From: Candidatus Woesearchaeota archaeon
GTDB taxonomy: Archaea > Nanobdellota > Nanobdellia > Woesearchaeales > B29-G15
NCBI GenBank assembly: GCA_003650585.1
Contig: QMQS01000001.1
Coordinates: 1 to 35,775, forward strand
Length of the DNA stretch: 35,775 nt
Direction: 5' to 3'
The notes beneath the pieces are model-generated. The model did no database searches. It was given only the letters and a program-made list of their open reading frames with translations, and had not been told where the DNA came from. The first letter of the stretch is position 1; the number at the start of each line of letters is the position of its first letter. The position numbers and the translations under genes are program-made. This document shows positions 2,920 to 33,117 of this stretch, one piece after another.

Positions 2920-2924
2920 TGAGT

Positions 2925-2946
2925 AATAGAAAAATATATATATGTG
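2925..2946 (+). promoter_or_regulatory. A/T-rich TATA-like element upstream of the six-gene surface operon
   Basis: AATAGAAAAATATATATATGTG sits in the 72-nt gap after metG. It is followed by a GAGGT Shine-Dalgarno (2978-2982) 9 nt before the ATG at 2992. Assigned by position and composition only. Confidence 0.4.
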
Positions 2947-2991
2947 GAACCTATTTTAGCAATTTGGATTTAACCCTGAGGTAATCGGGAA

Positions 2992-5130
2992 ATGAAAAGA
3001 AGAGGACAGGTTACAGTATACATTATTATAGCCCTTATAATTCTAATATCATTCTTGGTTCTTATCTACTTGAAGACAGGTATTAGAGGGGAGGAGGGAG
3101 AAGTTAGCACTGCAGTTGAGGAGGTGCCTGTCACATTCAAACCAATACAGCAGTATGTTGAGCACAACCTCCAATTGGCACTCCTCTCGGCAATCAAGAA
3201 TTTAGGCCAGCATGGTGGGTATGTTGACCCCTATACCTTTAGTCCACCCCCCAACTTGGACAACCCTACTGAAGCGATGGCGCTCAAGCCATTCCATTCT
3301 TCGACTAGGATATACCCTTACTGGTACTATATGGAATCCCCAAATTCCTGTGACAGCCATTGTTCCTTTAAAACCCTAATGCCTCCGCTCAGAAGCGAAT
3401 ACAAAGAGGGGGATCTAAGACCAAAGGATGATATGTCTATTGAGGCCCAGATAGATAGATATGTCAAAGCAAAACTCTCTGGCTTGGACTTCACCGATTT
3501 TAAGTTCCAGAACTTTGATGTGGTTAAACTGGCTGGACCAAAGGTCACAACCAGGATAGGCAAGGACAAGGTTTACGCAAGTGTGGTGTTCCCGCTTGAG
3601 GTTTCTAAAGAGGGTACAAGGGTGAGGCTGAGCAGCTTCAAGGCTAGTGTGCCAGTGGAACTCGAGAAAGTGTATGAGCTTGCTGGATTGATAACCAAGC
3701 ATGAACGCGACACACGGTTCATAGAGAGTTTTGTTGTTAACCTCCTGGGCACATACTCTGGCATTAACAAGGAGCGGTTGCCGCCTGTGGGGAGAACAGT
3801 TGAGTTCGGCACAAGCCCGGTGTATTGGCAACTTGATGATGTGAGGAATAAGGTCACAAGAGAGGTGTTGAGTAAGATATCTGGTATAAGTGTTAAGGGC
3901 ACTGCCAATTTCCACAACACAAACAACCAGTTCACAGGTGCAGTGGTCTCGCTTGGCGCCTCTAAGTTTGACGATATTGAGGTTTACTTTACCTTCCCTG
4001 ACACAAAACCATTTTATATGGCTATTAATGACCTCAGTAGTGGGTTTGTGGGTCCAAACACTATAACAAGGAATCTAATATTTTATAACTTTGTAATGAA
4101 TGAATATGCCTTTGCTTATGATCTATCTTTTCCAGTGCTTGTGACATTGAAACTGCCCAATGGGCTCAACAATGAGGATTACTTGTTCCAGTTTGCTTTA
4201 GAGGGTAACATCCGCTCCAATCAACCACTGTTTGAGGGTGCTAGCACCCTTAGCCCTGACACAGGGCACACAATGCTGTGTGATGAGGGACAAGAGCTCA
4301 GTGGTGATGTTGTAATCAGAACTAACACAAACGAGGGTCAACCGGTTGGGGATGTAGACCTCTACTACCATTGCGGTGGTGAGGGTTGCTACATTGGCAA
4401 GACAGACGCTACAGGCGTGCTTCACACAAAACTCCCTGTTTGTATTGGGGGTTTAATAGCTCCACTCAAGCAGCGCTATATAGGTGAGCCCGTGGAGTTT
4501 GATTCCTATCTTGACAAGCCAGGCCTAGTTACACTAACTCTAGATAAGACCAAGGCGTTTAAGCTTGAGGTTAACAAGCTGGTGTTTGAGCCAAGGGAGA
4601 CTTCATTTGGCTACAAATGGCCTCATGAATTGCCAGGGTTTCGTAGCTTGGGTTACACACCCAGGATTGAACCGTTGGAGGATGACGAAGAGGTCTTCGT
4701 TGTATTTAAGAGGATTGGCACGGGTGGCTTGACCACGTACCAATTCCCTGTGCAAGTGAAGGGAAGCGAAGCAGAGCTCCCAGAGGTTTTCCTTGCAGCA
4801 GGTGACTATGAGGTGCAAATGATGCTCATTAAGCACAGAGAGTTGGTCGTACCAGAGAACAAGTGTGGTCCTTTGAGCATAGGGTGCGTGCCCATGAACG
4901 AGACTGTGCTCAACTCTGTACAACTGGGTGGGGGCAATTTGAACGCCAACACTGGGTACTTCAAACTGCCATATGAATTGATGGACTCTGATAAGATTAC
5001 TCTGTATGCAGTTTATTTCAACATCTTTAGCATTCCGCAAGAAAATGTAAAACCAAAGGATTTGGGGGTTATATCAAGACTTGATGATTATTCGATGTAC
5101 TTTAGAAAATACAAACCGGGGTTTAGTTAA
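2992..5130 (+). CDS. large exported protein A1 (712 aa) with prepilin-like class III signal peptide, unknown family
   Basis: N-terminus MKRRG-QVTVYIIIALIILISFLVLIYL is a short basic leader ending in Gly followed by a hydrophobic helix. It is a paralog of 10911-12800, with collinear shared motifs: YV...L......AIK..G..GGY, [FY]PLEV, Y.F.YDL[ST][FY]PV.VT, and GKTD...LP. The segment VVIRTNTNEGQPVGDVDLYY..GKTDATGVL resembles a carboxypeptidase-regulatory-like beta sandwich (tentative). Confidence 0.85.
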   Translation: MKRRGQVTVYIIIALIILISFLVLIYLKTGIRGEEGEVSTAVEEVPVTFKPIQQYVEHNLQLALLSAIKNLGQHGGYVDPYTFSPPPNLDNPTEAMALKPFHSSTRIYPYWYYMESPNSCDSHCSFKTLMPPLRSEYKEGDLRPKDDMSIEAQIDRYVKAKLSGLDFTDFKFQNFDVVKLAGPKVTTRIGKDKVYASVVFPLEVSKEGTRVRLSSFKASVPVELEKVYELAGLITKHERDTRFIESFVVNLLGTYSGINKERLPPVGRTVEFGTSPVYWQLDDVRNKVTREVLSKISGISVKGTANFHNTNNQFTGAVVSLGASKFDDIEVYFTFPDTKPFYMAINDLSSGFVGPNTITRNLIFYNFVMNEYAFAYDLSFPVLVTLKLPNGLNNEDYLFQFALEGNIRSNQPLFEGASTLSPDTGHTMLCDEGQELSGDVVIRTNTNEGQPVGDVDLYYHCGGEGCYIGKTDATGVLHTKLPVCIGGLIAPLKQRYIGEPVEFDSYLDKPGLVTLTLDKTKAFKLEVNKLVFEPRETSFGYKWPHELPGFRSLGYTPRIEPLEDDEEVFVVFKRIGTGGLTTYQFPVQVKGSEAELPEVFLAAGDYEVQMMLIKHRELVVPENKCGPLSIGCVPMNETVLNSVQLGGGNLNANTGYFKLPYELMDSDKITLYAVYFNIFSIPQENVKPKDLGVISRLDDYSMYFRKYKPGFS

Positions 5131-8100
5131 ATGCGCACCAAAACAAGACTAGAGGCGTGGGCATTATGGATAGTTGCTTTTGTGTTGATGTCAGGGGTTG
5201 TTGAGGCCTCTGGCCACTTGTGGGATACAGTTATGTATGGGCAGGACCAGTTGCCCGGGTTCTTGCGTTCGTATGATAATTTCTATGCTGAGACTTATGC
5301 CGAGATTGATGGAGACTCAGAGATTACACCGGACCAGGTACGCTTTGGTCCATTAGAAACTCCGGCAGATATGTGCGTTTCTACCTTGGATGGGTACAAG
5401 TGTACTTTGAGTGTGAGTGACGAGGAATACTTGCCATCCCTTACGACTATACCAGTAAAGCTGTATGACGACTCTGGCCTGCTTGTGAATGAAACATTGT
5501 ATGACATTGTTGTGGACGGTTATGGTCCAGAGGTGGGTTTGTTGCTTGAGTCTGAGTTCACCAATGGGCAGCAGCCAGTGGTGGTAAACTACACTATCTT
5601 TGACACTGCCTTCCCAGATTCAGAGGTGTGCTCGGGCATAGGTGGCATCACAATTTCAATAGTTGGCGAAACAAATGAGACATTTGAGCTTAACCTTGAG
5701 GATTGCTTTGCTGAGGGGTCTGTGGAATTGGAGCTCAGCTCAGATGAGACATCATCTGAGGTGTGTGCTGTTGCCTATGATAGGTTGATGCAATCTGGGG
5801 CTTGGGAATGCGTGACTATTGGCATTGATTCAACCCTGCCTTATATACTCCCTGACTCACTCAGGTTTGAGTTTACTGACACCCCTGCTAACAATACCTT
5901 CCTTGCGCCAGGGGTTGCTTACCATGCTAATGTGTATGTGCGGGTTAATGAGAAGCATTTATCTGCCGAAGGGGTAACAGGCGATTTCTCAGCTGTAAAT
6001 TCGCAACAGAGCTCTTATGTGCTCAATGCAAGCGAGTGCTATCAGGTGGATGTTGATCTGTACGAGTGTGTGTTTGAGAATGTTGAGATTGTGTTGGGCT
6101 CAGAGAGCAATGTGGGGGTAGTAATTCAAGCAACAGACTTGGCAGGCAACACAGCCCAGTCCACGTTGTATTACTTGTTCATGCTGGATAGCACAGGCCC
6201 AGAGCCACTGAGCTTGATTATCAATGGTCAAGTGGGTGAGCCACAGTGGGTTGGCACGAGCATACCACTTGTTGAGGCAGACTTCTTGGAGGAGGGTGTT
6301 GGCTTGGTTGCCTCTCAAGTATACTTGGACCTCTCAAGTTTTGGCCTTGGTGAGGTGGCTGCAAACGATTGTTGGCAGCAAGACCAGGGTGTATGGCGTT
6401 GTACTTGGAATAATATCCAGATTGGAGCATCCACACAAGAGGAGGGTGTGATTGGCATTGGTTTGAGCACCACTGATGCAATCGGTAATCCCCTTGTTGG
6501 TGGGTTAAGCGTTACAGTACTGGTGGATTACTCACCACCAGAAATACTGAGCTTCAATCTCACTCAGCCAGAAGCGCCCTTCGAACTCCCGGACAATATG
6601 TACTTTGAGGGTATTCCTCTGGTGATGCACGCGAAAGTGCTTGAGGATAAGGAGCTTTTGAGTGTGCGCATTGACCCTGCTTGGATTAAGCTAATGGATA
6701 TATATAATGACACGAGTTTGATGGGCGGGCTAAACATCACAGCAAATGTTAGTTTGAATTTCACTGCTGATGTGAGCGAGTCTTGCAGTGCAGTTGGCGA
6801 TGGGATATGGGACTGCACCTATGTGCTAGAGTCTCCAGTGCCAGGGGTTTATGATGCGAGTTATGTGTTTGAGGATGCAGCTAAGAACCAGGTTATGCAA
6901 GAGAGTGACTTTACTGTGGTCGATTTGAGGCAGACAGAAACCCAATACTGGAATCTGGGTGAGGTTGAGAGAATGCCCTCTGCTGTGGATAGAAGCACTG
7001 CCCCATACATAAACCACCAGCTCTTGTTCCTTGTGCCACTTGTTAGGGTTGTTGGAGCAAGCTCAGGCGAATCCCAAGAGAGCTATTCACAACTCGATAC
7101 ACTGAGGGCACAGGGGTTGGACGTCAGCCCACCAGCCACAAGCGTGAGATTGCTTAAGGTATTGCTTGGCAATTGCTCTGGGGATACAAGTTATGTGTTG
7201 AGCAACACCATAGTTGATGGCTCTGATTTGGGCGAGTATCCATACATTGAGACAATACTGAAAAAAATGGAGATGCCATTGCGTGACCTCAATCTAACTT
7301 GCGAGATACAACTCTATTCACTTATCACTGCAGGTGAAGATGTCTGGGTGAATGAGAATCCAGAGGTAAAGTCTGTGGTGATGGAAATCCCCTTCTACGA
7401 TACAGAATTACCTAAAGAGGTTTTAGCCCAGAAGTTCGATGAGATTAAGCAGAGCACTGTTGTTAGGATGACTGACAACGAGTTGTTTAGGTTTGCCACT
7501 CAGATGGTAGAGTGGTCCAAGGTCGCTGCCAAAATGGACAATGCTTTACTACAAATTGCACAGGGATTAGAGGCCTTGGCTGGGTTGTGCCAGGGCTTGG
7601 CTTCTGGAGCAGACATCTGTGCCTTTGTTAGCACATTCTCACAAGGGGCAATGTCGTTACACGAGAGCGTGGCTCCGTTTATAGGTTGGCTCACTTGCGA
7701 TAAGACAATTGTGGGTGAGTTGATGCCTGATAGTGATTGGTACAAGACATGGAAGAACATGGGCATGTTCTTGGGTGGGGACTGGATGCTTGAGCAGGGT
7801 TACACAGAAGAGGAGATAACCAACCCGAAGAGGAGTCTTATAGCAAGCACTGCGATGCTATGCCTGCCGGGTATTGTAGACAACCTCAAACAGATGCGGG
7901 ATATAGAGTGTGGCTATGCATACTGCATACAAGAGGCATCCAAACTTGGAGTGCCATCAGATTATTGTAATGAGATTAGGGATTACGGTTGGTGTGTGGC
8001 TATGGGTGAAGAGGTACTGTACCTCATGCCGCTCCAGCATGTTTATAATGATGTTGCTGCAGCAGCGAACAGCGCCTTTACAAGCCCACTCCATTTGGTT

Positions 8101-8286
8101 GCAGAGGGTGCTGGGCTTATTTGTGAGTGGGGTGGCAATGTCGGGATTATGCAACATGTGTGCAACTTCATACTCATAGGCAAGATGCTCAATGGTGTCC
8201 AGATGGGGCTTGATGTGATTAACAATATGGCTGAGTACACAGCCCCAGTGGATTATTGTGCTCTATTGGAAAATGGTAACCAATAA
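5131..8286 (+). CDS. large secreted protein B1 (1051 aa): Sec signal peptide, about 5 Ig-like modules, C-terminal Cys-rich core; unknown family
   Basis: ATG directly abuts the A1 stop (TAAATG). Sec-type signal MRTKTRLEAWALWIVAFVLMSGVVEA-SG. Repeated domain-boundary motifs VDGYGPEV, IDSTLPYI, LDSTGPEP and VDYSPPEI are spaced about 104-120 aa apart. There are five C-x(8-14)-[WY]-x-C hairpin motifs and many NxS/T sequons. The C-terminal 260 aa is Cys-rich and alignable to B2. Confidence 0.85.
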   Translation: MRTKTRLEAWALWIVAFVLMSGVVEASGHLWDTVMYGQDQLPGFLRSYDNFYAETYAEIDGDSEITPDQVRFGPLETPADMCVSTLDGYKCTLSVSDEEYLPSLTTIPVKLYDDSGLLVNETLYDIVVDGYGPEVGLLLESEFTNGQQPVVVNYTIFDTAFPDSEVCSGIGGITISIVGETNETFELNLEDCFAEGSVELELSSDETSSEVCAVAYDRLMQSGAWECVTIGIDSTLPYILPDSLRFEFTDTPANNTFLAPGVAYHANVYVRVNEKHLSAEGVTGDFSAVNSQQSSYVLNASECYQVDVDLYECVFENVEIVLGSESNVGVVIQATDLAGNTAQSTLYYLFMLDSTGPEPLSLIINGQVGEPQWVGTSIPLVEADFLEEGVGLVASQVYLDLSSFGLGEVAANDCWQQDQGVWRCTWNNIQIGASTQEEGVIGIGLSTTDAIGNPLVGGLSVTVLVDYSPPEILSFNLTQPEAPFELPDNMYFEGIPLVMHAKVLEDKELLSVRIDPAWIKLMDIYNDTSLMGGLNITANVSLNFTADVSESCSAVGDGIWDCTYVLESPVPGVYDASYVFEDAAKNQVMQESDFTVVDLRQTETQYWNLGEVERMPSAVDRSTAPYINHQLLFLVPLVRVVGASSGESQESYSQLDTLRAQGLDVSPPATSVRLLKVLLGNCSGDTSYVLSNTIVDGSDLGEYPYIETILKKMEMPLRDLNLTCEIQLYSLITAGEDVWVNENPEVKSVVMEIPFYDTELPKEVLAQKFDEIKQSTVVRMTDNELFRFATQMVEWSKVAAKMDNALLQIAQGLEALAGLCQGLASGADICAFVSTFSQGAMSLHESVAPFIGWLTCDKTIVGELMPDSDWYKTWKNMGMFLGGDWMLEQGYTEEEITNPKRSLIASTAMLCLPGIVDNLKQMRDIECGYAYCIQEASKLGVPSDYCNEIRDYGWCVAMGEEVLYLMPLQHVYNDVAAAANSAFTSPLHLVAEGAGLICEWGGNVGIMQHVCNFILIGKMLNGVQMGLDVINNMAEYTAPVDYCALLENGNQ

Positions 8287-10117
8287 AGCTATGCTTGGAT
8301 TTGTTGCATTGATTTTGGTAATTGTCAGTGTTTCTATAGTGAGTGCTGAAGCACAAACTTACAATGTTTTGCTTACCCGTGATTCAGGAGAGGTTGTTTA
8401 CCTTGAGGAGGAAATTCAAGAGAACTTTGGTGAGCCAGGGCGGACTATGTACACTTATCGCGACCCTGACAATAGTATGCCTGTGTTCAGCATTGTTGTA
8501 GAGCCAGACGGCAGGGTCTTCTATCCAGGTACTAATGCATACTATGACTCATTTGATGGGGCGATGGCTGCTGCAAAATTACATTTAGAAAGCTACTCCC
8601 ATATTCAACAGATTGGATATTACTCGGCAGCAACTTCTGATATCGATTCAACCCTGCAGGAGGAGCAAACTCAAGCTCCACAAGGGGTGGTTAGTCAGGG
8701 GGAAAGTGCTACCACTACTAATGAGGGGGCTACGGTGGATAATCCAGTTGATGCTTCTGCTGCTTCACAAGCAGATGCTAGCACTACAGCAGGATTAGTG
8801 TGTACTGATGGTTTCTGTTACTTTACTTCACCCCACACGCCCTCTGACCTCAACCTCCCTCACTCCGGAGTAACACTCGATACCGGGTTTACCTTCTCAG
8901 GCGATTTCCAAACAAGGTTTCATTCTGTGCAGTCAATGGAAGAGATACCTGAGGGTGCAGAACGGATTAGCAACACCAATTATTATATTATCGAGAGGCC
9001 TGGTGGGATAGTGGATTATTATATACTCAGTACCGATGAAGAAACAGACCAGTTTGAGCCAGCCCCGGCAGAGGAAATAAACCAGAATGCTGATGTAGAG
9101 CAAACTGGTGCTGCCTCTAACTTGCCTGAAACGATTGAAGCCCAAGGGGTTACATTTATACACACCGAGGGCTCACTCTACAAATATACCACACCCAATG
9201 GTGAGAGCGTGTATTATGATACTGCTGCACAGAAATACTTTAAGCAAGATGGAGAGACACTCACAGAGATATCTGAAGAGAGTGCTATGGCACTAATCAA
9301 TGCCCCTACTACTGTACCACAACCTTTACCAGCCCCCGCTGATCCCTCTCAACCCAATCTTAAGAAGGTGCTTGTGGCATTGAGCCAGGAGTATGCCCCT
9401 GCTGCCTCAGGGTGGCTCTGGCTTTACTCATTGGCAGACCAAAAAGCCGCTCAGGATTTGAGGATGGCCTTCAGTGGTGATATAGGATTGCCCCAAACAG
9501 CAGCAGACTTTTTGTGCCAAGCCACACGGGACATAAACCCCAACCAAAACACAATGTTGGGTTATGATTGGGGTAAGATGCCTACACTCCAGTTACAGGC
9601 GATTAGGAGTACACCTATTGTATATCCCTCAAATAACACTAATGGCTCTGTTTCCACTCAGGGGCTTGTTGTTGAACCCAACCAAACCACTGAGGGAAAG
9701 GTGCTCTATTACACAAAAATCACGCTGAGGTTTGAGAATATACTTAACCCAATTGTGGATGTCAAGGACAAAACTTACGAGGTGTATCTCGCTGGTTATT
9801 CCGAGAGTAAGAAATTTGTGATAGACCTTGATCCCACATCCGAGGCTACCTCTCTAAAACTCAACTTCGGGAGTTTGACAATGGCTGGTAGGGATGCCAT
9901 AATCGAGTACTGGCCTGTGCGACTAGACAAGGTGTGCATAGAGTTCAAAGACCCAGAGCATATACTCAACCCCAAGTTCCTACAAAAGCTGCGCCCAGCC
10001 AACATGTTCTGTACCAAGGTTGTGGAGGTTAAGGATAAGTGGCTCGTGTATCAGCTGATGGGGGCAACAGGGAGTGCTGGTCCGAGTGAAGAGCAGGGCA
10101 ATGTGCTCCAAAGATGA
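8273..10117 (+). CDS. secreted protein C (about 614 aa): signal peptide, Tyr-rich short repeats, low-complexity linker, C-terminal domain homologous to an internal segment of B2
   Basis: ORF runs 8258-10117. I prefer the start at 8273 (MVTNKAMLGFVALILVIVSVSIVSA-EAQ) because it gives a classical n-region, hydrophobic region and AxA-like site; 8258 or 8291 remain possible. It overlaps the B1 stop. The C-terminal half shares MxFSxxIGxP..ATR..NP and PVRxDKVxxE[FW] with B2. Confidence 0.8.
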   Translation: MVTNKAMLGFVALILVIVSVSIVSAEAQTYNVLLTRDSGEVVYLEEEIQENFGEPGRTMYTYRDPDNSMPVFSIVVEPDGRVFYPGTNAYYDSFDGAMAAAKLHLESYSHIQQIGYYSAATSDIDSTLQEEQTQAPQGVVSQGESATTTNEGATVDNPVDASAASQADASTTAGLVCTDGFCYFTSPHTPSDLNLPHSGVTLDTGFTFSGDFQTRFHSVQSMEEIPEGAERISNTNYYIIERPGGIVDYYILSTDEETDQFEPAPAEEINQNADVEQTGAASNLPETIEAQGVTFIHTEGSLYKYTTPNGESVYYDTAAQKYFKQDGETLTEISEESAMALINAPTTVPQPLPAPADPSQPNLKKVLVALSQEYAPAASGWLWLYSLADQKAAQDLRMAFSGDIGLPQTAADFLCQATRDINPNQNTMLGYDWGKMPTLQLQAIRSTPIVYPSNNTNGSVSTQGLVVEPNQTTEGKVLYYTKITLRFENILNPIVDVKDKTYEVYLAGYSESKKFVIDLDPTSEATSLKLNFGSLTMAGRDAIIEYWPVRLDKVCIEFKDPEHILNPKFLQKLRPANMFCTKVVEVKDKWLVYQLMGATGSAGPSEEQGNVLQR

Positions 10118-10932
10118 GTTCCAGAGCGTTCCAAGCTCGTGCATCCAGGTTTCTCATGCTGTTTGCGGTTGAGTGGTTTACCTATGTTTTGATTCTTGGT
10201 GTGTTGAGTTGGTTGGGAAAATCAGCCAGTGTTGTTCTAAATAACATTGCTGTAACCCTAAGGGCAAAAACCACTGAATCAGCGACATCACTTGTGCTTA
10301 GAGAGCTAGCATGGTATGCTATTGCTGGCTTTGTTGCAATGCTGGTTATCTGGGTTCTATCTAGGATAATGGTGTGGCTGATACTAACCAAAACAAGAGC
10401 CAGCTCAAAGGGGATAATCAGACTTTTTCTATTGGGATTGCCCTACACATGCTTTAACTGGCTTTTGCTTGCAGGGGTGTTGTATATTGGTTACAAGGTG
10501 CTGGCTTTAATCGTGTTCATTCAACCCCCTTGGCTCGGTTATATTCTCGCATACCTTGTTTTTCTGGTTTTTCTAGGACCCTTAATGTTTAATATCACTT
10601 GTCTCAATAATCTGGCATACTACAACTATTTTCAGGGCAACCCCAATTGGTTGTTGTTCTACACTGCTCCCTTCCGCTTACGCCCCTTCTTCTCAAAACA
10701 GAAAAATTCAAATACTAAAACTGAATTTTTAAACAAATTGAAGCAGTGGGAGTTTGCCACGCTTGTGGTTTCGACCATCTTTGTGGCACTCAATCTCCTG
10801 TTTCAAGCGTTCAATCACCTTCCCACCACTCTTGGGCTAATGCTCATGCTTTTGTTTTATGTTTTGTTTGTGGTCTGGAGTAAGGTGTACATGGTTTCGG
10901 TGTTGAAAGGATGGCAAAAAGGGGTGCACTAG
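10114..10932 (+). CDS. polytopic membrane protein D (272 aa, about 6 predicted TM helices), unknown family
   Basis: ATGA start/stop overlap with the preceding ORF (10114-10117). The sequence consists of long hydrophobic stretches separated by short basic loops. No recognisable transporter or enzyme motif. Confidence 0.8.
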   Translation: MSSRAFQARASRFLMLFAVEWFTYVLILGVLSWLGKSASVVLNNIAVTLRAKTTESATSLVLRELAWYAIAGFVAMLVIWVLSRIMVWLILTKTRASSKGIIRLFLLGLPYTCFNWLLLAGVLYIGYKVLALIVFIQPPWLGYILAYLVFLVFLGPLMFNITCLNNLAYYNYFQGNPNWLLFYTAPFRLRPFFSKQKNSNTKTEFLNKLKQWEFATLVVSTIFVALNLLFQAFNHLPTTLGLMLMLLFYVLFVVWSKVYMVSVLKGWQKGVH

Positions 10933-12800
10933 CTCAAGTGAGCATTTTTATGGTGATTGCACTAATCATACTAATTGGTATTGGTGTGCTCATCTTTTTG
11001 AAGACTCGTGGTATGCTTGAAATGGGTGGTTCTGAGATACCTAAGGAATTCTTGCCAGTGAGCAAATATGTGGATTCGTGCCTGAGGAGAGTGGGCTTGG
11101 ATGCAATCAAGTTGGTGGGTGTCCAGGGTGGTTATGCAAGGGTACCGGAGGAGATAGCCAACAACCCTGAGGCATACCTGCCTTTGATAGGCAACTTGAA
11201 GATTCCCTTTTGGTATTATAACAACAAGAACCATGTGCCAAGCAAGAGGGATATTGAGCAGAGTATTGCTGAGTATATTGCCACGGAAATTCCAAATTGC
11301 TTGGGCGGGTTCGCGCCCCTGAACCACACATTTATTATAAAGCCCAGTGGTTCACCGAGAGTGAATGTATTTATTAAGGAGGAAGAGGTTGAACTTTCTT
11401 TGGATTATCCCTTGGAAGTTGCTACCCATAGCTCATCAGCAGAGATTAGGAAATTCAAACAGAGCGTGGATGTTAGACTGGGTAGGATACTTAGGCTTGC
11501 CCACGAGATAATGAATGCAGAGAACAGAGAGGCATGGTTAGAGAAGAGAACAATCGACCTTATGGCGACCATGCCTGACCGCGTAATACCCTTCACAAAC
11601 CTTGCCTTCAGTTGCTTGCCACTTGAATGGAAAACATCTGATGTAGAATCAGAACTCAAACAAACTCTGAAATACAATATACCCAGAGTGCGAGTGAAGA
11701 AAACCAAACACCTACCGTTTGAAAAGCCACTCGAATACTACGAGGGCTTAGGCAAAGGGATGGGTGGTGAGATACCAGGTGACATGGCAGAGTATGCAAT
11801 GCTACTATGGGACCCACTGAGTGAGGAGTTCAATGACTTGAGGGTGGGTTTTGTGTATATGCCAGAATGGGGTATGGAGTTTAAGGTTAGCCCATCCTCT
11901 TCAGGGTTGATGAAATCATACCCTGTACAGGGTAGGAGTTTTAAGGGAATAAATCTTGTGGGAACCTGCATACAGTTCTACCATTTTACTTATGACTTAA
12001 CTTATCCAGTGCGAGTTACTATCTTTGATTCGGCTTCTCTTGGAAACAATGGCTATTCCTTTAACTTTGCTTTCCCTGTCATAGTGTATCACAATACTGG
12101 TAAGAGATGGTTTGAGCCGGTGCGAGATGTAAGCTTATACGAGGGTGAGGACTTCTGTTCTGACACCTCTAGTGACAAATTCAGTGTGTTTGTGCAAGAC
12201 GCAACCACATACGAGAAGCTCAAGAATGTGAGCATAGCATTCACCTGCATACGCTATGTGTGTCCTTTGGGTAAAACTGACGAGGAATATGGCAGACTGC
12301 TCACACAGTTACCAGAGGGTTGCTATGGTGGGTTCATTGTGGCAGAGAAGAAGGGCTATCTAAAGGCAAAAAAACAGGTTGAAGGTGAGCAAACAACCAC
12401 TATATACATGCTACCAATGAAAGAAATGAATGTGAGTGTGCTCAAGTACAACAATGCTACGGGTAGCTATTCAGAGCTATCTGGTGAGGAGAAGGCATCC
12501 CTCTACCTTGACCTTGAGTCAGGAGACCATCAGGCATATGTGCTGGTAACACCAGGTACGCAAAGGGAGGTAAGCATAGTTAACTCAAATGTGGAGTATA
12601 TGGTTAACCTCTACCTCTTTGATGGAGAGGCTTTGGTGGGTGGATACAAAGGGGAGTGGGCTATAGAGCCAGCCCAACTCTCAGGCAAATCTATATTGGA
12701 GTTTTATGCGTATTATTTCCCAAACAAGAATCAGAGTGGTGTAATAGCTGCAATAAGCAAATTGCAGAACTCAACCACACTTACACCGAGGGCAAGATGA
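10911..12800 (+). CDS. large exported protein A2 (629 aa) with prepilin-like class III signal peptide, paralog of A1
   Basis: N-terminus MAKRG-ALAQVSIFMVIALIILIGIGVLIFL. It overlaps the D stop by 22 nt. Motifs are collinear with A1 (SKYVDSCLRRVGLDAIKLVGVQGGY, YPLEV, YHFTYDLTYPVRVT, CPLGKTDEEYGRLLTQLP). Confidence 0.85.
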   Translation: MAKRGALAQVSIFMVIALIILIGIGVLIFLKTRGMLEMGGSEIPKEFLPVSKYVDSCLRRVGLDAIKLVGVQGGYARVPEEIANNPEAYLPLIGNLKIPFWYYNNKNHVPSKRDIEQSIAEYIATEIPNCLGGFAPLNHTFIIKPSGSPRVNVFIKEEEVELSLDYPLEVATHSSSAEIRKFKQSVDVRLGRILRLAHEIMNAENREAWLEKRTIDLMATMPDRVIPFTNLAFSCLPLEWKTSDVESELKQTLKYNIPRVRVKKTKHLPFEKPLEYYEGLGKGMGGEIPGDMAEYAMLLWDPLSEEFNDLRVGFVYMPEWGMEFKVSPSSSGLMKSYPVQGRSFKGINLVGTCIQFYHFTYDLTYPVRVTIFDSASLGNNGYSFNFAFPVIVYHNTGKRWFEPVRDVSLYEGEDFCSDTSSDKFSVFVQDATTYEKLKNVSIAFTCIRYVCPLGKTDEEYGRLLTQLPEGCYGGFIVAEKKGYLKAKKQVEGEQTTTIYMLPMKEMNVSVLKYNNATGSYSELSGEEKASLYLDLESGDHQAYVLVTPGTQREVSIVNSNVEYMVNLYLFDGEALVGGYKGEWAIEPAQLSGKSILEFYAYYFPNKNQSGVIAAISKLQNSTTLTPRAR

Positions 12801-15800
12801 TAAGAGCAAAACTCTTCATTGGCATACTACTAATCTTTGTGGTTATGGGCATAGTTGGTGCTACTGCACCACAGATAAGTGATGTGAGGGCAGAGCCACA
12901 CGTATCTTATGTGGGTATTCACTGGAGGACAGATGTGCCTGCAAACAGCAAAGTGGAGTATGGCATAGCAGGGCTTGATTTGAGCAAGTTCAAGCCGGAG
13001 TTTACAACTGTACACAACCTTTACTTAACCAATATCCAATCCAACAAGGAGTATCAGTTTAAGGTGACTTCGTGTAATAATGATGGGTGTACAAGTTCGG
13101 ATGTGGGGAGTTTTAGCATAGCAGTGGCAGACACCACACCACCTGCTTTAACACTTGAACCAGTTGAGGCAGTGGTTTACACCAGCCAAATCGAGCTTAG
13201 GGGTAGTGTTGATGAGCCGTGCAATATATACGCTATTGTTAATGGTAATAAAACCCAGAACATAACCTCTAGCGGGGATTTTACATTAACACTTGAGCTC
13301 AATCAGGGTGAGAATGAGGTTGTGGTGGTTGCTGAGGACCAGAGCGGTAACCCAGCCCAAAAGAGCTTTTCTGTGGTTGCTGATTTCGAACCCACAGAGG
13401 TTTTGGAAATAAACCTGGACGAGCTGGATATGAGCACCAGTGCCAAACAGACATTGGTGGGTATTGTTAGCAAACCAGATGTGGAGATTACAGTGGATGT
13501 TGAGGGGCGCGAGTTTACCACTGTTGCAGACAGTGAGGGGCATTTCAGTGTGGAGATAGAGTTGAATGGCGAGGTTATTGGCACTGGCAGATTGAACCAT
13601 ATCGTGGTTACTGCCAAGGATAAATACGGTAGGGTTGACATGCTGGTTGACGGCTCAATCACCTTTATCAAGTGCGGTAGTGGTTCTGGTTGGACAGCCA
13701 ATTTCTATGACTTAACCCCTACAGAGGTGTTGCCAGACCATCTACTGAACGGAGTTGCCCAATTCGGGTTCAGGATGGACTTTGATTATGTGGGTGGTGG
13801 TAGGAATGCTTACATGGAAATGCTGCCATCATTAACCATACAACCCATGAGTCAAGCGAAGGCAAAGCGTTCAGATGAGGAACTCTTCTCTGGGGCTGTT
13901 GTGGAGTGTAATGAGGCAAGAGACAAGTGTTACTTCCTTGTCACTCTGGCGCCTTGGAGCGGTTCAAGGCAGGAATTATTGAATAAGAGCATGGTGAGGT
14001 TGCCCCTGATGGTTAGGTTGCAGTATGCCCATGAGGTTAATGGGCAGATGGAGCACAGGGTGCAGGAAGAATGCTTGGACATAAACTTGTACCTTGACCG
14101 CCGGCTTATAGATGTTTACAAACCCAACAGGATGCTTAACAGCACTATATCCTTCCTCAATTCAACACTAAGCGCTCTTGAAAGCGTTAGAAAGCCGATT
14201 GAGACTGCGAAATCATTTGTAATTACTGGGTGCTTTGCCCAAACAGTCATTGATTTTGTAACAAGACTAGGCATGCTCACCAAGTGTATGAGTGGCAGGG
14301 CTGAGGCAGAGGAGGCATACACCAGAGGCGATAAAACCTGTCCAGATGATGCGAGTGAGGGTTGCCAGTCATGCTTGGATGCGCTCTGGAGTGTGAGAGC
14401 AAGCGAAGTTGCAAGGAACTGGTTGTGCGATAGACTCTTTTGTCCCAGTGCTCCTACGATTGAGAAGCACAAGCAAACCTTTAGGGACCCAGTAACAAAG
14501 AGGGAGAGCCTCTGCAAGCAGAGCGAGAGCAGCGAGGGGTGTGAACAGGAGTATAAATTCGCTTGGGACACAGCAGGGTTGTTTGTTGATGAATGGGCCA
14601 GGGCAACCAAAGATACCTCAAAGCTAACAGATTTGGATTGGATAATAATGCAGAGCAACCAGTTCTGCCCAGCAATAAAGGGCTTCCCTGCTCAGATTAT
14701 TAAGGTTGGAACCAAGGAATACTTTATTGATGAGGACAAGAGGGTGTGGGAGGTTAGGCAAACCAGGTTTGCCCAGAGCCAGGGTGAGGTAGTTACTGTG
14801 TACAATGAACAATACACCAAGATTAGGGGACCTCTGGAACCTGGTAAGGATATTATCCCACAGCAAATTCTTGAGCTTATTCAGGGAGAGCAAGAGGAGA
14901 ACTATGTGTTTGACCCCACAGCAGGACCGTACGAGGCACTGGTGGGTGGTTGCCTGCCTGCAATAACAGGCTATATATCCCACTGGGAGTCAATCACAGA
15001 GGCAGTTAAGAGGTGCCTCGAGATGGTTAGGCTCAATGGTGAGGGCACTCCAGGGGTATGTAAGGCAGTGCTGAGCTATTATGTTTGTGATGCCATATGG
15101 GACTCACTGAGGTGTCTCGGTGGAGGCTTGACCGCTGGCACTGAAACTGATAGACCACAATCAGGTATGATTCAGTCCCTTTCAAGGATATCACAGGCAG
15201 CGAGTGCAGTGACTGACTCAGTTACAGGAAGATACGGCGAGACAGCAATGTTTGATACAATGTTCAGACAGCGGAAGTTAATACACGGGGCTTGCATTGG
15301 CTTCTTTACAGGTGATATGACCGAGTTTGATCTTAATGCGATGTTCAGTGCTGAAATTGGCATGCCAGCTTTGAGAAGCGAGGGGCTTGTTAGCCCAGCC
15401 ACAAGGCGTTACCTCACCAGCAACCCGTTTAACCAGGGTTGGGCTACCTTTATGTATCATATTGGTTATGCGCTAAATGCAGGGAGTGATTTGAATTATG
15501 AGTTAAAGCTGGTGTGCTCAAACGACCTCAGTTGTCCAGACTCCAACAACGAAGCCAACCCTGGTGCTTGCGATTGTTACACAAGGGGAGAGCAACTCAC
15601 ACGCACAATCGCATCTGGCACGCTCTCAGCAGGGGATATGGCGAATGAGGAGAAGTATATCAAACTAACTGAGCCAGTTAGGTATGACAAGGTGGTGCTG
15701 GAGTGGACCTACACGGACAACACAGGTGAGCAGCGCACAGACCGGATAGTAAGGCCAATAAAGCTTGTGGGTGAGTCACCACCCTCACACTGTGGATTCT

Positions 15801-16876
15801 CAAATGTGTTTGGCGAATACAGGTGTGAGTTTGAGTTGGGAGAGGAGGGAGCTGCTTTCTTCATTGGCACGCCCATGCCATCCCCACCTGCAGGTAGGCC
15901 ACGCCCGGATGTTTTCAGGGTGGGTGACAAGCTCGTTATCACTGGGCAAATAGGTGTGCAAATGCCAGAACAGGGTAGCCCTGTGCCCAGGTTCCTAACT
16001 GTTTTGATGACATCACACAATGGTGAGTTAGTGGCAGACAATACTGTAATGCTTAGCACAACCGGGAGCTACTTGTTGGAGTCCTTCCCGCAACTTTTCC
16101 CCACCATAACTCAAGACAATTTCAGGGACTCGGCTGGTAACCTTGATTGTGATAGGTATGACCTCAATCATCCAGCAACTTGGGATGTTTATGTTGTGAT
16201 ATACAAAGCTGAGCAGAGCGAGAGTGGTGAATGGAAGAGGACAGACGAGGTTGAGTTGTACGAGGGCCAGCCCCAGTACTTCCGACTACCGGTTTATGTG
16301 GCTTGCTCTGAAGAAGAGATTGGTGCACCACAGTGCCCCAACGGAGCCATCTGGGCCTCGCCACAAGAGTGTTGGTGCATGAGCGAGGGTGAAAGGCGAA
16401 TATTTAGCCCCAGTTCCGCTGAAGCCCAGGGCAAGTACTGCTGTAATGGTGTGGTTGCCACTGCGCCATGCGACGAGGCAGCACCAAAGTTCAACAGGGT
16501 GATGATTAGAACATGGGAAGCCCCAGAGAACGAGCCAGGGATATTGAGCAAGTCTGTTGAGCTTAGCCAGCTGCAGGATGGTGCTGTGTTGCTAATGCCT
16601 TACAATAAAGTGGAGTTCCCAGAGATATCTATATCAGACGATAGTGAGATTGAGCTCGAGCTTGTGGTTGATGGAAGCACGAGGGTGGGTGTTGGCTCAG
16701 GAGAGCCACAGCAGATAACCAGCTTTGAGTGGGAGCCAGAGATGGGTGGTGATTCCATAAAAGAGGTTACAATTCAGTTTGAGGCAAGGGATGTAAACGG
16801 CTTGGTTACTAGGTACCCACAGACGCCAAAGAGGGTTGAGCTTAGAAAGACACTTCTGCAGCCTATATCCTCTTAG
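12797..16876 (+). CDS. very large secreted protein B2 (1359 aa): signal peptide, Fn3-like and Ig-like domains, Cys-rich core shared with B1, C-like domain, extra C-terminal region
   Basis: I place the start at ATG 12797, which forms an ATGA overlap with the A2 stop and gives the signal peptide MIRAKLFIGILLIFVVMGIVGA-TA. VGIHWRTDVPANSKVEYG..YQFKV resembles an Fn3 or purple-acid-phosphatase N-terminal type domain. DTTPPALTL and GNPAQKSFSVV resemble Ig-like domain edges. The Cys spacing CLP.I-x16-C-x13/14-C-x8-C is shared with B1. Confidence 0.85.
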   Translation: MIRAKLFIGILLIFVVMGIVGATAPQISDVRAEPHVSYVGIHWRTDVPANSKVEYGIAGLDLSKFKPEFTTVHNLYLTNIQSNKEYQFKVTSCNNDGCTSSDVGSFSIAVADTTPPALTLEPVEAVVYTSQIELRGSVDEPCNIYAIVNGNKTQNITSSGDFTLTLELNQGENEVVVVAEDQSGNPAQKSFSVVADFEPTEVLEINLDELDMSTSAKQTLVGIVSKPDVEITVDVEGREFTTVADSEGHFSVEIELNGEVIGTGRLNHIVVTAKDKYGRVDMLVDGSITFIKCGSGSGWTANFYDLTPTEVLPDHLLNGVAQFGFRMDFDYVGGGRNAYMEMLPSLTIQPMSQAKAKRSDEELFSGAVVECNEARDKCYFLVTLAPWSGSRQELLNKSMVRLPLMVRLQYAHEVNGQMEHRVQEECLDINLYLDRRLIDVYKPNRMLNSTISFLNSTLSALESVRKPIETAKSFVITGCFAQTVIDFVTRLGMLTKCMSGRAEAEEAYTRGDKTCPDDASEGCQSCLDALWSVRASEVARNWLCDRLFCPSAPTIEKHKQTFRDPVTKRESLCKQSESSEGCEQEYKFAWDTAGLFVDEWARATKDTSKLTDLDWIIMQSNQFCPAIKGFPAQIIKVGTKEYFIDEDKRVWEVRQTRFAQSQGEVVTVYNEQYTKIRGPLEPGKDIIPQQILELIQGEQEENYVFDPTAGPYEALVGGCLPAITGYISHWESITEAVKRCLEMVRLNGEGTPGVCKAVLSYYVCDAIWDSLRCLGGGLTAGTETDRPQSGMIQSLSRISQAASAVTDSVTGRYGETAMFDTMFRQRKLIHGACIGFFTGDMTEFDLNAMFSAEIGMPALRSEGLVSPATRRYLTSNPFNQGWATFMYHIGYALNAGSDLNYELKLVCSNDLSCPDSNNEANPGACDCYTRGEQLTRTIASGTLSAGDMANEEKYIKLTEPVRYDKVVLEWTYTDNTGEQRTDRIVRPIKLVGESPPSHCGFSNVFGEYRCEFELGEEGAAFFIGTPMPSPPAGRPRPDVFRVGDKLVITGQIGVQMPEQGSPVPRFLTVLMTSHNGELVADNTVMLSTTGSYLLESFPQLFPTITQDNFRDSAGNLDCDRYDLNHPATWDVYVVIYKAEQSESGEWKRTDEVELYEGQPQYFRLPVYVACSEEEIGAPQCPNGAIWASPQECWCMSEGERRIFSPSSAEAQGKYCCNGVVATAPCDEAAPKFNRVMIRTWEAPENEPGILSKSVELSQLQDGAVLLMPYNKVEFPEISISDDSEIELELVVDGSTRVGVGSGEPQQITSFEWEPEMGGDSIKEVTIQFEARDVNGLVTRYPQTPKRVELRKTLLQPISS

Positions 16877-16926: not shown

Positions 16927-17442
16927 ATGGAAAAGCTCGAGAATCAGCCATGTCCGGTGTGTAAAAAAAACACGTGCACATTGACAGAGGAAGAGATGGA
17001 TGTGCCGTATTTTGGTAAGGTTTACATATTCTCAATGCAGTGCTCAAACTGCGGGTTCAAGAAGTCAGATGTTGAGGCAGCTGAGCGCCACAAACCGGTT
17101 AAATGGAGTTTCACTGTTGAAGGGGATGAAGACCTCAGTGTTAGGGTTGTCAAGTCCTCTGAGGCGAAGGTGAAGATTAGGGGCATTGTTGAGATAACAC
17201 CCGGACCTGATTCTGAGGGGTATGTGACCAATGTTGAGGGGCTTTTGAATAGGGTAAAGCACAGGATTGAGGCATCGATAGAGGATGAGGACGATCCTGA
17301 GGTTAAAAAGAGGGCTTGGAAGCATATTAAGAAGCTCAACAAGGTGCTTGTGGGTCGGGAGAAGTTGAGGATAACTATTGAAGACCCTAGCGGCAACTCA
17401 GCCATTATATCAGAGAAGGCAGAGAAGAGCAAACTCAAATAG
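16927..17442 (+). CDS. ZPR1-type zinc finger protein
   Basis: CPVC-x(25)-CSNC zinc ribbon followed by the beta-rich ZPR1-like body (VKWSFTVEGDEDLSVRVVKSSEAKVKI..GIVEITPG). The size of 171 aa is typical for archaeal ZPR1 homologs. Confidence 0.75.
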   Translation: MEKLENQPCPVCKKNTCTLTEEEMDVPYFGKVYIFSMQCSNCGFKKSDVEAAERHKPVKWSFTVEGDEDLSVRVVKSSEAKVKIRGIVEITPGPDSEGYVTNVEGLLNRVKHRIEASIEDEDDPEVKKRAWKHIKKLNKVLVGREKLRITIEDPSGNSAIISEKAEKSKLK

Positions 17443-18379
17443 CTCTAATCTCTATATCTTGTATATCTTGTGTGTAGCTTTGATGCTCGAGAGTGAGCCC
17501 CAGCCCCATACCGAGTTTGAACATACCTTGGCTAAAGAGGCTTGCTAGATTCTCGAAAAATGTGCGCTTTGGAGTGACCCTCACCATCTTGACCTTTGTA
17601 ATGTTGAGCACGCTCTTGAGGTAGTTTTCTACCTCGTCATAGCCACCGAGCATGTCAACCAAACCAACATCTATGCCTTCCTCGCCTGTGAAAAACAAGC
17701 CAGTGGCAATCTGTGCCCTCTGGGCTTGAGTTAAACCGCGATTGGTGCTTATCTCTGAAACAAAGCTGTCATGCATCTTGTCAATCTTACTCTGCAGTAT
17801 AGCCCTCTCTTGAGGTGTTAATGGTTTGTACTTTGTGCCGATATCCTTGTAGTCGCCACCCACAAGCCTCTCGTAACTCACATTGTAGCGCTGCATGAGC
17901 CCATAGTAATCAAGGTAAGAGCCAAGCACACCTATGCTGCCAGTTATGGAGTATTTGCTGGCAAACACCACATCACAGGCACTCGCAACCCAGTACGCAC
18001 CCGAGGTGCCAATGTCCCTAATCAAAGCCACACTTGTTTTGTTTAATCCCTTGATTGCATTGGCAATTGCTTCAGAGGCAACAGGTGTGCCCCCGCCCGA
18101 GTTGATGTCAAACACTATTGCCTTTATGTTGGGTGATTCTGAAGCCCTCTTTATTAACTCGATTGTTTCGTCAGGGTTGACCAATTCTGAGTAGAATGGC
18201 CCAGAGAAGCCTATAAAGCCATGGATGGGTATAACAGCCACATTACCGCCGATGAATTCCTGGTTTAGCCCTAGTCCCAAAAATGTTGAGATTAAATAAC
18301 TTATAACAAGTAAAGTGAAGAGTAGTGAAAGCATGAACCTCCATCTTTGCGTGGGTTTAGGGTAGTAGTTGGGTTTCAT
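17435..18379 (-). CDS. sppA: signal peptide peptidase SppA (S49 family, 36K type)
   Basis: VAVIPIHGFI, IKAIVFDINSGGGTPVASEAIANAI and GTSGAYWVASACDVVFASKYSITGSIGV match the S49/ClpP-fold serine peptidase. The start at 18379 (MKPNYY...) is chosen because AGGTGG lies 6 nt upstream and a basic n-region plus TM helix follows. Confidence 0.85.
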   Translation of the reverse strand: MKPNYYPKPTQRWRFMLSLLFTLLVISYLISTFLGLGLNQEFIGGNVAVIPIHGFIGFSGPFYSELVNPDETIELIKRASESPNIKAIVFDINSGGGTPVASEAIANAIKGLNKTSVALIRDIGTSGAYWVASACDVVFASKYSITGSIGVLGSYLDYYGLMQRYNVSYERLVGGDYKDIGTKYKPLTPQERAILQSKIDKMHDSFVSEISTNRGLTQAQRAQIATGLFFTGEEGIDVGLVDMLGGYDEVENYLKSVLNITKVKMVRVTPKRTFFENLASLFSQGMFKLGMGLGLTLEHQSYTQDIQDIEIRAI

Positions 18380-33116: not shown

Positions 33117-33117
33117 C

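Follow-up and report, generated by a model that had tools for sequence, protein, structure and literature searches.

Two modules of a pilin-like protein and a cysteine-core exoprotein in an order-wide operon of Woesearchaeota: a possible surface complex for cell contact

What does a woesearchaeon construct from six adjacent genes whose products are exported or membrane-bound and belong to families without annotation? The question is raised by positions 2992-16876 of the window analysed here, the entire 35,775-nt contig QMQS01000001.1 of a Candidatus Woesearchaeota (DPANN) metagenome-assembled genome (MAG). Six open reading frames (ORFs), all on the forward strand, follow one another there in the order A1-B1-C-D-A2-B2, flanked by archaeal housekeeping genes that include MetRS, ZPR1, GINS51, L44e, eIF2-alpha, PAC2 and enolase. 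The first of the six is DRJ48_00015 at NCBI. An earlier annotation of this DNA, referred to below as the original prediction, had assigned 39 percent of the window to the operon, and the computed span is 13,885 of 35,775 nt (38.8%). The reading favoured here, in which our confidence is slightly better than even, is that the operon encodes a lineage-specific surface complex built from two copies of a module, each comprising a pilin-like anchor and an exoprotein with a cysteine core, and that this complex serves in cell contact. The features on which the argument draws are the following.

2925-2991, forward strand: upstream control region and putative promoter, with the A/T-rich TATA-like run aaaaatatatatatg and GAGGT
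2992-5130, forward strand: A1, 712 aa
2992-3072, forward strand: N-terminal segment of A1, MKRRG/QVTVYIIIALIILISFLVLIY, with a putative prepilin-peptidase site at the slash, between G (-1) and Q (+1), and a hydrophobic helix behind it
5131-8286, forward strand: B1, 1051 aa
7813-8025, forward strand: B-core (a four-cysteine motif) in B1, residues ~895-965, the most conserved stretch of B1
8273-10117, forward strand: C, 614 aa from ATG; the ORF also opens at GTG 8258
10114-10932, forward strand: D, 272 aa
10911-12800, forward strand: A2, 629 aa
12797-16876, forward strand: B2, 1359 aa from ATG; the ORF opens at GTG 12656
14951-15103, forward strand: B-core in B2, residues ~719-769, matched by hidden Markov models (HMMs) of the B1 family and of a family of giant proteins described below

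The six genes are joined without intergenic space. A1 and B1 meet in TAAATG (5128-5133), B1 and C overlap by 14 nt (8273-8286), C and D as well as A2 and B2 share ATGA (10114-10117 and 12797-12800), and D and A2 overlap by 22 nt (10911-10932). The Shine-Dalgarno-like GAGGT lies 9 nt ahead of the A1 ATG. A single N-terminal hydrophobic segment is present in each of A1, B1, C, A2 and B2, and D is polytopic by hydropathy. The original prediction had described six coupled ORFs on one strand behind a TATA-like element and a Shine-Dalgarno sequence, encoding only exported or membrane products of unrecognisable family, and on these points it was borne out: every junction string that it quoted was found at its coordinates, the A/T-rich run and GAGGT can be read upstream of A1, and the hydropathy of the six proteins agrees. 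Two of its statements require adjustment. The absence of any enzyme from 4,700 codons holds for the window proteins, which however sum to 4,637 codons; and the NxS/T sequons that it called abundant are indeed enriched but modestly so, at 0.62 per 100 aa in the operon against 0.41 in the cytoplasmic proteins of the window (about 1.5-fold), with a single one in A1.

The six families carry no Pfam, NCBIfam or PDB annotation. Pfam and NCBIfam scans gave no match for A1, B1, C, D and A2, the S-layer families of Pfam (S_layer_N and S_layer_C) matched none of the six proteins, and a PHROGs scan of all six matched nothing except an immunoglobulin (Ig)-like stretch in B2. PDB sequence searches found no relatives, whether the query was one of the proteins or a family profile (A, B1 and D). 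The operon was not found described in literature searches. For these phyla a 'module 98' has been reported, and its 51 families without annotation may include the six.

Is this arrangement the property of one contig or of a lineage? Relatives were collected by a pattern scan of one genome per GTDB species, which yielded at least 343 confirmed A relatives; 80 loci were kept, and their ORFs were labelled by phmmer and then by family HMMs. These loci are titled Woesearchaeota, Nanoarchaeia or Nanoarchaeota, together with third-party annotation (TPA) MAGs titled 'uncultured Methanosarcinales' that have the same gene content. A word-indexed search with the A family returned 27 proteins, none of them annotated, and those with a named source were from Woesearchaeota. 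The A-B order, for which the original prediction had proposed a test of conservation, is retained: B1 follows A1 in 59 of the 70 loci with sufficient downstream DNA, and B2 follows A2 in 19 of 20. C and then D stand behind A1-B1 in 28 of 40 loci, a count that is partly circular, since the HMMs of C and D were built from positional candidates in 17 of these 28 loci, leaving 11 as independent. Behind D, A2 is found in 19 of 27 loci, and the remaining eight end after D as a four-gene variant. MetRS lies at most four genes upstream of A1 in 26 of 43 loci, and the gene order is the same in the public annotation of contigs from relatives both close and distant.

The coupling is conserved with the order. 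The commonest A1-B1 junction is a 4-nt ATGA overlap (28 of 62), and tight junctions are seen between B1 and C (23 of 26 loci), C and D (21 of 26) and A2 and B2 (18 of 20). The D-A2 junction is looser, with a median of +27 nt, and a true spacer (median +77 nt) separates MetRS from A1; this suggests that the operon consists of two sub-units, A1-B1-C-D and A2-B2.

Between close genome pairs, the ratio of nonsynonymous to synonymous substitution rates (dN/dS, Nei-Gojobori) is 0.12-0.14 for A1, 0.13-0.17 for A2, 0.19-0.24 for B1 and B2, 0.22-0.24 for D and 0.33 for C, with 0.08 for MetRS. With ratios of 0.12-0.33, all six are therefore functional genes under purifying selection, and the order of constraint is A > B ~ D > C. 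The same gradient can be followed in amino acid identity within one pair of loci (L004 and L006), whose genes from MetRS through B2 correspond to window positions 766-16876: MetRS 96%, A1 87%, A2 79%, B2 73%, B1 69%, D 66% and C 55%. In this pair the synonymous rate (dS) itself varies, from 0.22 for MetRS and 0.40 for the gene upstream of it (hyp240, described at the end) to 0.53 for A1, 0.91 for B1, 1.10 for C, 0.94 for D, 0.72 for A2 and 0.88 for B2. That the operon lies far above MetRS suggests recombination, allele exchange or old allelic lineages centred on C.

The operon is thus a real, co-inherited, order-wide unit in Woesearchaeota/Nanoarchaeia, beyond what chance would produce. This bears directly on the notion that it represents mobile or viral cargo or a set of non-functional ORFs, for which the annotation gap alone speaks. 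GC content is even along the window; scans of the window for tRNAs, Rfam elements and tandem repeats were all empty, and PHROGs is silent but for the Ig-like stretch of B2. Moreover, the chromosomal synteny with MetRS extends over many species and the genes are under purifying selection. The conservation data effectively refute this explanation, whose probability we regard as negligible.

A1 and A2 are paralogs (BLASTP 2e-29; ~530 residues aligned at 27% identity). Conservation within the A family peaks at the N-terminus, with a majority-residue fraction of 0.57 for residues 1-27 against 0.27-0.48 elsewhere. There A1 reads MKRRG/QVTVYIII, the sole strict FlaFind-type match among the proteins of the window. 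The motif K[KR][GA]Q[IV][TS][IV]F[IM]II is found in 81 A1-type and 25 A2-type homologs and in nearly nothing else nearby, and it recurs in the A-like partners of the giant proteins. The N-terminus of the window A2 (10911-10991), MAKRG-ALA-QVSIFMVIALIILI, has the family motif with three extra residues at the presumed peptidase site. Since the motif is conserved and has the same -1 and +1 residues as the true pilin of this lineage, A is read as a predicted class III-signal (prepilin-type) protein. The prepilin-like signal that the original prediction had ascribed to A rests on a motif conserved family-wide.

What the N-terminal helix of A1 would carry is suggested by an AlphaFold2 (AF2) model (pLDDT 82.3, alignment of 25 sequences). 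The model predicts a transmembrane (TM) helix at residues 4-30, a low-confidence linker (28-42), a helix (47-73) and an alpha/beta domain (~47-410), then three beta-sandwich domains (~430-660) and a C-terminal helix. The PDB matches of this model in Foldseek are generic beta-sandwich stalks with TM-scores of ~0.1, among them Gram-positive pilins, SdrD, the TIE protein of B. anthracis and the CarboxypepD_reg-like NTE domain of SusC (9hfj); because only stalks are found, the N-domain of A1 is unmatched in the PDB. A Pfam scan of 25 members of the A family gave no match, and a PDB sequence search with the A N-terminus alone found no relatives. The conserved residues of A are structural (G, W, Y, P and C), with no catalytic constellation.

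B1, which follows A1, has a Sec-type signal and no further anchor. In its AF2 model (pLDDT 81.7, 60 sequences), five Ig-like domains (residues 28-600) are predicted, and every one has an invariant pair of cysteines as well as D..GN / D...P motifs. A beta domain is predicted to follow (601-756), and after it comes an all-helical domain (762-1047), rich in Cys, of ~290 residues with helices of 28-39 residues. The Ig-like domains are visible in the model, not by Pfam or NCBIfam. The beta-sandwich content announced by the original prediction agrees with the AF2 models and the Foldseek matches of A1 and B1. Word-indexed searches recover few relatives (five matches for B1, three for B2); the B1 family is revealed by an exhaustive profile search, which collects 2,354 representative clusters at E<=1e-3, or 970 when the threshold is set to 1e-30. 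With few exceptions the members are full-length proteins of 1,000-1,100 aa. None of the conserved residues of B1 looks catalytic. The B-core, a motif of ~60 residues with four cysteines (C-x-x-G ... C ... C ... C), lies inside the helical domain.

Since the plan of B1 is a chain of beta-sandwiches with one helical domain, an alternative of a quite different kind has to be considered, namely that the operon encodes a protease trap or defence system of the alpha-2-macroglobulin/TEP kind, with B1 as a macroglobulin-like protein that would protect the cell surface and A as its anchor. The top Foldseek matches of B1 in the PDB are A2M, A2ML1, C3/C4/C5, TEP1 and CD109 (E ~1e-14 to 1e-11), and the plan, about six beta-sandwiches and a helical domain of ~290 residues, is superficially similar. 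However, these alignments have TM-scores of ~0.1 and root-mean-square deviations above 50 A, and pure tandem-Ig proteins (PirB, DSCAM) as well as phage Ig/fibronectin type III (Fn3) proteins (BFVD) score equally. The order of the domains differs: the helical domain of B1 is C-terminal, with helices of 28-39 residues, and is not nested in a CUB domain. The thioester motif C[GASL]EQ occurs in five of 60 family members and not in the window B1, and there is no sequence relationship: a profile search of PDB sequences returned no macroglobulin and no other relative of B1. Membership of B1 in the alpha-2-macroglobulin family was rejected on the grounds that the thioester motif is not conserved and the TM-scores are very low, and a macroglobulin-like function appears highly improbable.

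B2 is also Sec-secreted. Fn3/Ig-like domains stand at its N-terminus, the B-core lies within a Cys-rich region, and the C-terminal part is rich in beta structure. Pfam recognises Glucodextran_B at residues 121-197 (9.5e-10; 38.7 bits against a cut-off of 27), and the matches to Big_13, Pur_ac_phosph_N and Ca_tandemer are weak and below the curated cut-offs. An ortholog (P0180) has 53% identity. The relationship between B1 and B2 is invisible to BLASTP and is detected at the profile level alone: positions 850-929 of the B1-family HMM align to residues 688-768 of B2, collinearly in five B2-type proteins, and hhalign of the B1 family against full-length B2 gives a probability of 92% (E 6e-7; B1 427-959 with B2 162-768). 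Because of these matches, B2 is probably a divergent paralog of B1. Together with the paralogy of A1 and A2, this agrees with the two diverged A-B modules that had originally been proposed.

The pairing of an A-like gene with a B-core protein is not confined to the operon. Behind the most distant of the A homologs (P0027), overlapping it by 4 nt, lies the gene of a secreted protein of 2,190 aa with a C-terminal SLT domain; in locus L080 the gene after an A-like one encodes a protein of 3,029 aa that carries both SLT and DUF1615. Both giants contain the B-core. A scan of metagenome contigs with their shared central region recovered 156 relatives, of which 80 loci were kept. These proteins, of 1,700-3,400 aa, are secreted proteins of Woese- and Pacearchaeota, and in 49 of the 52 loci with at least 2.2 kb of upstream DNA they lie directly behind an A-like gene, mostly with an ATGA overlap. 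Their A-like partners, of 607-648 aa, yield an HMM that matches A2 at 2e-71 and A1 at 1e-48 and is thus nearer A2. With E-values of 4e-10 to 4e-5, the B1-core HMM finds every one of the 80 giants, and of the 1,157 further ORFs in these metagenome loci it matches none. Conversely, among the proteins of the window, the giant-family HMM matches B2 alone (E 7e-4). The giant loci adjoin GINS and L44e, and the same genes lie a few kb from B2 in the window. The C-termini of the giants vary and contain SLT (E 1e-19, 1e-12), a glucosaminidase-like domain, DUF1615 or nothing recognisable; SLT is found in the giants of L084 and L080, and the glucosaminidase-like match of L087 lies just under the Pfam cut-off.

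'Murein-like lytic transglycosylase' giants, which reach 3,000 aa and are specific to Pace- and Woesearchaeota, have been described (fam00969 in PMC8204110; also PMC9723730), and it has been proposed that they attach to or degrade bacterial walls (PMC8204110, PMC9723730). No mention of a pilin-like partner, of C or of D was found in these papers. The giants and the window proteins B1 and B2 are alike in the four-Cys B-core, in being secreted and lineage-restricted, and in being coupled behind an A-like gene. They differ in length (1051 aa for B1 and 1359 aa for B2 against 1,700-3,400 aa) and in cargo: several of the giants carry muralytic domains, and Pfam detected no SLT, glucosaminidase or DUF1615 domain in B1 or B2 of the window. 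Outside the core, the similarity of B2 to the giants is weak (E 7e-4). Taken together, the paralogy, the common B-core and the adjacency of A-like genes and giants indicate that the operon holds two copies of a more general module, a design that is ancient in this lineage. As relatives in the B2 slot carry SLT or glucosaminidase-like domains, the interpretation is sharpened towards contact with the wall of a host cell.

The two genes that stand between the A-B pairs are of another nature. C has a Sec-type signal; its N-part is hypervariable and in places of low complexity, and a C-terminal domain of ~220-270 aa is conserved. Its positional homologs range from 359 to 1200 aa, with N-parts of ~100-950 residues, and the C-terminal part alone aligns. 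C is the fastest-evolving gene of the operon, and in profile comparisons it was unrelated to the A, B and D families. D, with ~6 TM segments by hydropathy, has few conserved polar residues in an 18-member alignment; Pfam searches with the 18 family members and PDB searches gave no match. A role for D as prepilin peptidase was rejected, the window copy having no aspartate in its sequence and no family match; D is a candidate for the membrane base of the complex.

A beta-hairpin-like motif common to the C family, the B2-type proteins and the giants lies ~165 residues past the B-core. It is located at residues ~882-918 of B2 (nt ~15440-15550) and ~475-510 of C, and it reads Y-K-I-T ... Y-E-V-Y-L-A-G in C, F-M-Y-H-I-G-Y-A ... 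Y-E-L-K-L in B2 and Y-K-V-F-Y-H-I-Y-A-G ... F-R-V-Y-L-K-G in the giants. The C HMM matches five B2-type proteins at a constant offset past the B-core. The corresponding profile-profile match between C and B2-type proteins covers 25 columns with a weak hhalign probability of 36%, and hints that B1 and C together may be the counterpart of a B2-type protein.

If A is a prepilin-type protein, a filament machinery might be expected nearby. In the closest relatives, a 485-aa ATPase, two platform (T2SSF-like) genes and a small pilin lie upstream of hyp240-MetRS, and the equivalent locus of the window genome would fall past the left edge of the window. The small pilin, seen in three loci, begins MVMKKKA/QAAMEFLMTYGWAIL, with A at -1 and Q at +1 as in A. 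Two motif scans for small pilins near the operon found none besides this ATPase-linked one, and its QxxxE[FY] pilin motif does not occur in A. The original prediction had suggested assembly by a motor encoded at 30924-35406 of the window. No link between this locus and the operon was found, and the ATPase alone is recognisable there: a T2SSE ATPase of 762 aa on the opposite strand (33118-35406; E 3.4e-15), 14 kb from the operon. This ATPase is unusually long, its Pfam domain covering residues 449-605 alone, and it is one base apart from a 730-aa polytopic membrane protein within 30924-35406 (reverse strand). The 730-aa protein found no support as a T2SSF platform, matching neither T2SSF nor any other family. 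The pair is distinct from the 485-aa ATPase locus that adjoins the operon in relatives, and has the look of a second secretion or filament ATPase system, of an atypical kind.

One ATPase with two platform genes is the composition of the archaeal filament 'system 1' of Methanococcales and DPANN (bioRxiv 10.64898/2026.04.22.720090). The operon resembles this system, and the Epd-type pili of Methanococcus and DPANN, in the Q at +1 of the class III signal and in the ATPase, the two platform genes and the QxxxEF-type pilin that stand upstream of hyp240-MetRS-A1 in the closest relatives. Unlike the system 1 components, however, A has no QxxxE[FY] motif, and the filament locus is parted from the operon by divergent or independent genes and missing from the neighbourhood in most lineages.

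By analogy, the logic of the operon resembles known arrangements of a pilin with an adhesin. In the tip or priming complex of bacterial type IV pili, minor pilins act together with the large non-pilin adhesin PilY1. Both there and here, prepilin-type proteins are encoded with a large, Sec-exported and anchorless partner that is, or here would be, held at the surface. In contrast to that complex, A is three to five times the size of a minor pilin, and genes for an ATPase, a platform protein or a major pilin are missing from the conserved cluster. Features of PilY1 or Neisseria PilC are not apparent in B1 or B2 by Pfam, and the B1 model has neither a beta-propeller nor a vWA domain. A second precedent is provided by modular pilins (PilB and PilC of Streptococcus sanguinis) and by the Sulfolobus bindosome, in which bulky domains stand behind a class III signal and a hydrophobic helix. 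A likewise has bulky domains behind such a signal and helix, but no sequence or fold relationship with these proteins was detected, and its domains include neither a lectin nor a vWA or solute-binding module. Among archaea, a PilY-like adhesin has been mentioned for subsystem 4A/B (bioRxiv 10.64898/2026.04.22.720090).

The bindosome comparison raises the possibility of a nutrient-capture assembly, in which A1 and A2 would organise secreted binding proteins for scavenging. Class III signals on archaeal non-pilus proteins have precedent, and an assembly of this kind has been proposed for the sugar-binding proteins of Sulfolobus. DPANN archaea rely on scavenging, and muralytic relatives could free wall fragments for uptake. 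No fold or family of substrate-binding proteins, however, was found in A, B, C or D, the conserved neighbourhood contains no ABC transporter genes, and D matches no transporter family. This explanation is improbable.

According to the favoured reading, a complex for cell contact, A would be exported via its class III-type signal and, through its helix, either stay in the membrane or join a type IV filament at the base or tip, exposing the novel alpha/beta domain and the beta-sandwich stalk. B, translated from the overlapping next gene, would be exported by Sec and, being anchorless, would be held on the cell by A in a 1:1 complex, probably through the B-core. The remainder of B (Ig arrays, or muralytic domains in the giants) would project out through the surface layer (S-layer). 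C, as an exposed specificity subunit, and D, as the membrane base, would complete the first module. The likely task is contact with or attachment to other cells or their walls. The processing of A as a class III protein, its binding to B, the parts played by C and D and the service in cell contact are all inferred; contact in particular is favoured because the sister module bears muralytic cargo, because of the gradient of conservation and because all products are extracytoplasmic.

Several observations weigh against this reading. The grounds for A-B binding are adjacency and coupling alone. The A2 of the window fails the strict FlaFind-type pattern (KRG-ALA-Q), and A1 does not show the canonical pilin 'lollipop' of a continuous alpha-1 on a sheet in fewer than 250 aa, its model having the low-confidence linker between the TM helix and the next helix and then a multidomain body of 650 residues; indeed, because the A proteins, at 630-850 aa, are far beyond ordinary pilins, A could be a plain signal-anchored protein. 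A filament ATPase adjoins the operon only in three loci (L003, L006 and L007) and on one further contig (P0002), which form the subclade of the window, and no ATPase is found next to it in the other loci with enough upstream sequence. Neither an A24-type prepilin peptidase nor a small pilin is encoded within the window. As B1 and B2 of the window have no muralytic domain, the link with host walls is one of family relationship only. To these points must be added the partial circularity of the C-D count. Finally, the near-universal place beside a housekeeping gene would suit a structural role in the envelope equally well.

This last possibility is the main rival explanation: a constitutive scaffold of the envelope, involved in anchoring or spacing the S-layer or in forming a pseudo-periplasm, with A as a plain anchor and no role in contact or filaments. 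We consider it unlikely, though worth serious consideration. The cluster is order-wide and stands beside MetRS, GINS and L44e, like a core trait, and most lineages have no adjacent filament ATPase. The number of domains and the length of B1 are fixed over more than 970 clusters, unlike the repeat variation of adhesins. Moreover, an S_layer_C (PF05124) protein is encoded at 19404-21722 (forward strand), 2.5 kb 3' of B2, and in a distant relative (L001; GCA_016928155.1) an S-layer gene (7069-9477, reverse strand) directly adjoins A in divergent orientation. The A1 model also has a weak local beta-sandwich match to the S-layer anchor SlaB (8qox_B; E 2e-4, TMq 0.13). Such adjacency to S-layer genes is nevertheless restricted to L001 and L002 and, loosely, to the window. 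More difficult to reconcile with a scaffold is the precise retention of the -1 residue (G or A) and of Q at +1 by over 100 A proteins, which exceeds what a plain anchor needs. In addition, the same design of A and B-core bears domains directed against bacterial peptidoglycan, a polymer absent from archaea, and the fast evolution of C and of the Ig parts, with a cluster dS of up to 5x that of MetRS, is typical of exposed interaction surfaces.

A more general proposal, put forward tentatively as one that may well prove wrong, is that A, D and the B-core constitute a DPANN-specific two-partner system that exports or displays very large extracellular proteins, a pilin-like carrier being paired 1:1 with its cargo. 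The carrier would dock on the four-Cys core of the cargo and thread it through the S-layer, and the system would be either a new branch of type IV filament function or free of any filament ATPase. If this were true, Woese- and Pacearchaeota would use it, on the symbiont side, as their machinery for gripping hosts and, in some lineages, for cutting into them. Few uncultivated archaea are as abundant as Woesearchaeota and Pacearchaeota, for whose attachment to hosts the giant lytic-transglycosylase proteins are the sole candidates named so far. These are now tied to a wider and previously unnoticed design, in which a pilin-like gene is coupled with a Cys-core exoprotein. The typical woesearchaeon spends a 14-kb operon on two such modules, a variable subunit and a membrane protein. 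The variable C is a possible marker of host range, and families have been named for ~4,600 codons of 'hypothetical protein' per genome.

The operon also shows local variation. Pairs of small ORFs (~190 + ~140 aa or ~150 + ~170 aa), encoding cytoplasmic proteins, are inserted between B1 and C in eight loci (L028, L032, L034, L037, L042, L059, L060 and L068) and after D in one (L018). As candidate pilins they were rejected, their sequences resembling HTH/HEPN/nucleotidyltransferase cassettes; by eye they look like toxin-antitoxin cassettes of winged-helix + HEPN or nucleotidyltransferase + HEPN. In three loci of one subclade (L017, L024 and L033), a protein of 250-310 aa is encoded between B1 and C, with a TM helix behind an N-terminal region rich in Q and P; it may be an extra membrane component. 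An additional module, in the order B1-like, small ORF, D-like and A-like (790-905 aa), sits upstream of, or apart from, the canonical A1-B1-C-D in five loci (L036, L073, L076, L078 and L085), and extra copies of A are found in five others (L010, L022, L029, L053 and L061).

Many of the TPA MAGs with the operon (L005, L007, L009 and others) are titled 'uncultured Methanosarcinales archaeon', and one B1 homolog (P0036) comes under the title 'Pseudomonadota bacterium'; these titles look like taxonomic mislabels or mis-binning.

A true S49 signal-peptide-peptidase gene stands close behind the operon, at 17435-18457 of the window. Upstream, hyp240, a protein of 240 aa encoded at 41-763 (forward strand) ahead of MetRS, keeps its position in at least six relatives (hyp240-MetRS-A1), and it has a weak similarity to Peptidase_S49 (E 0.05).

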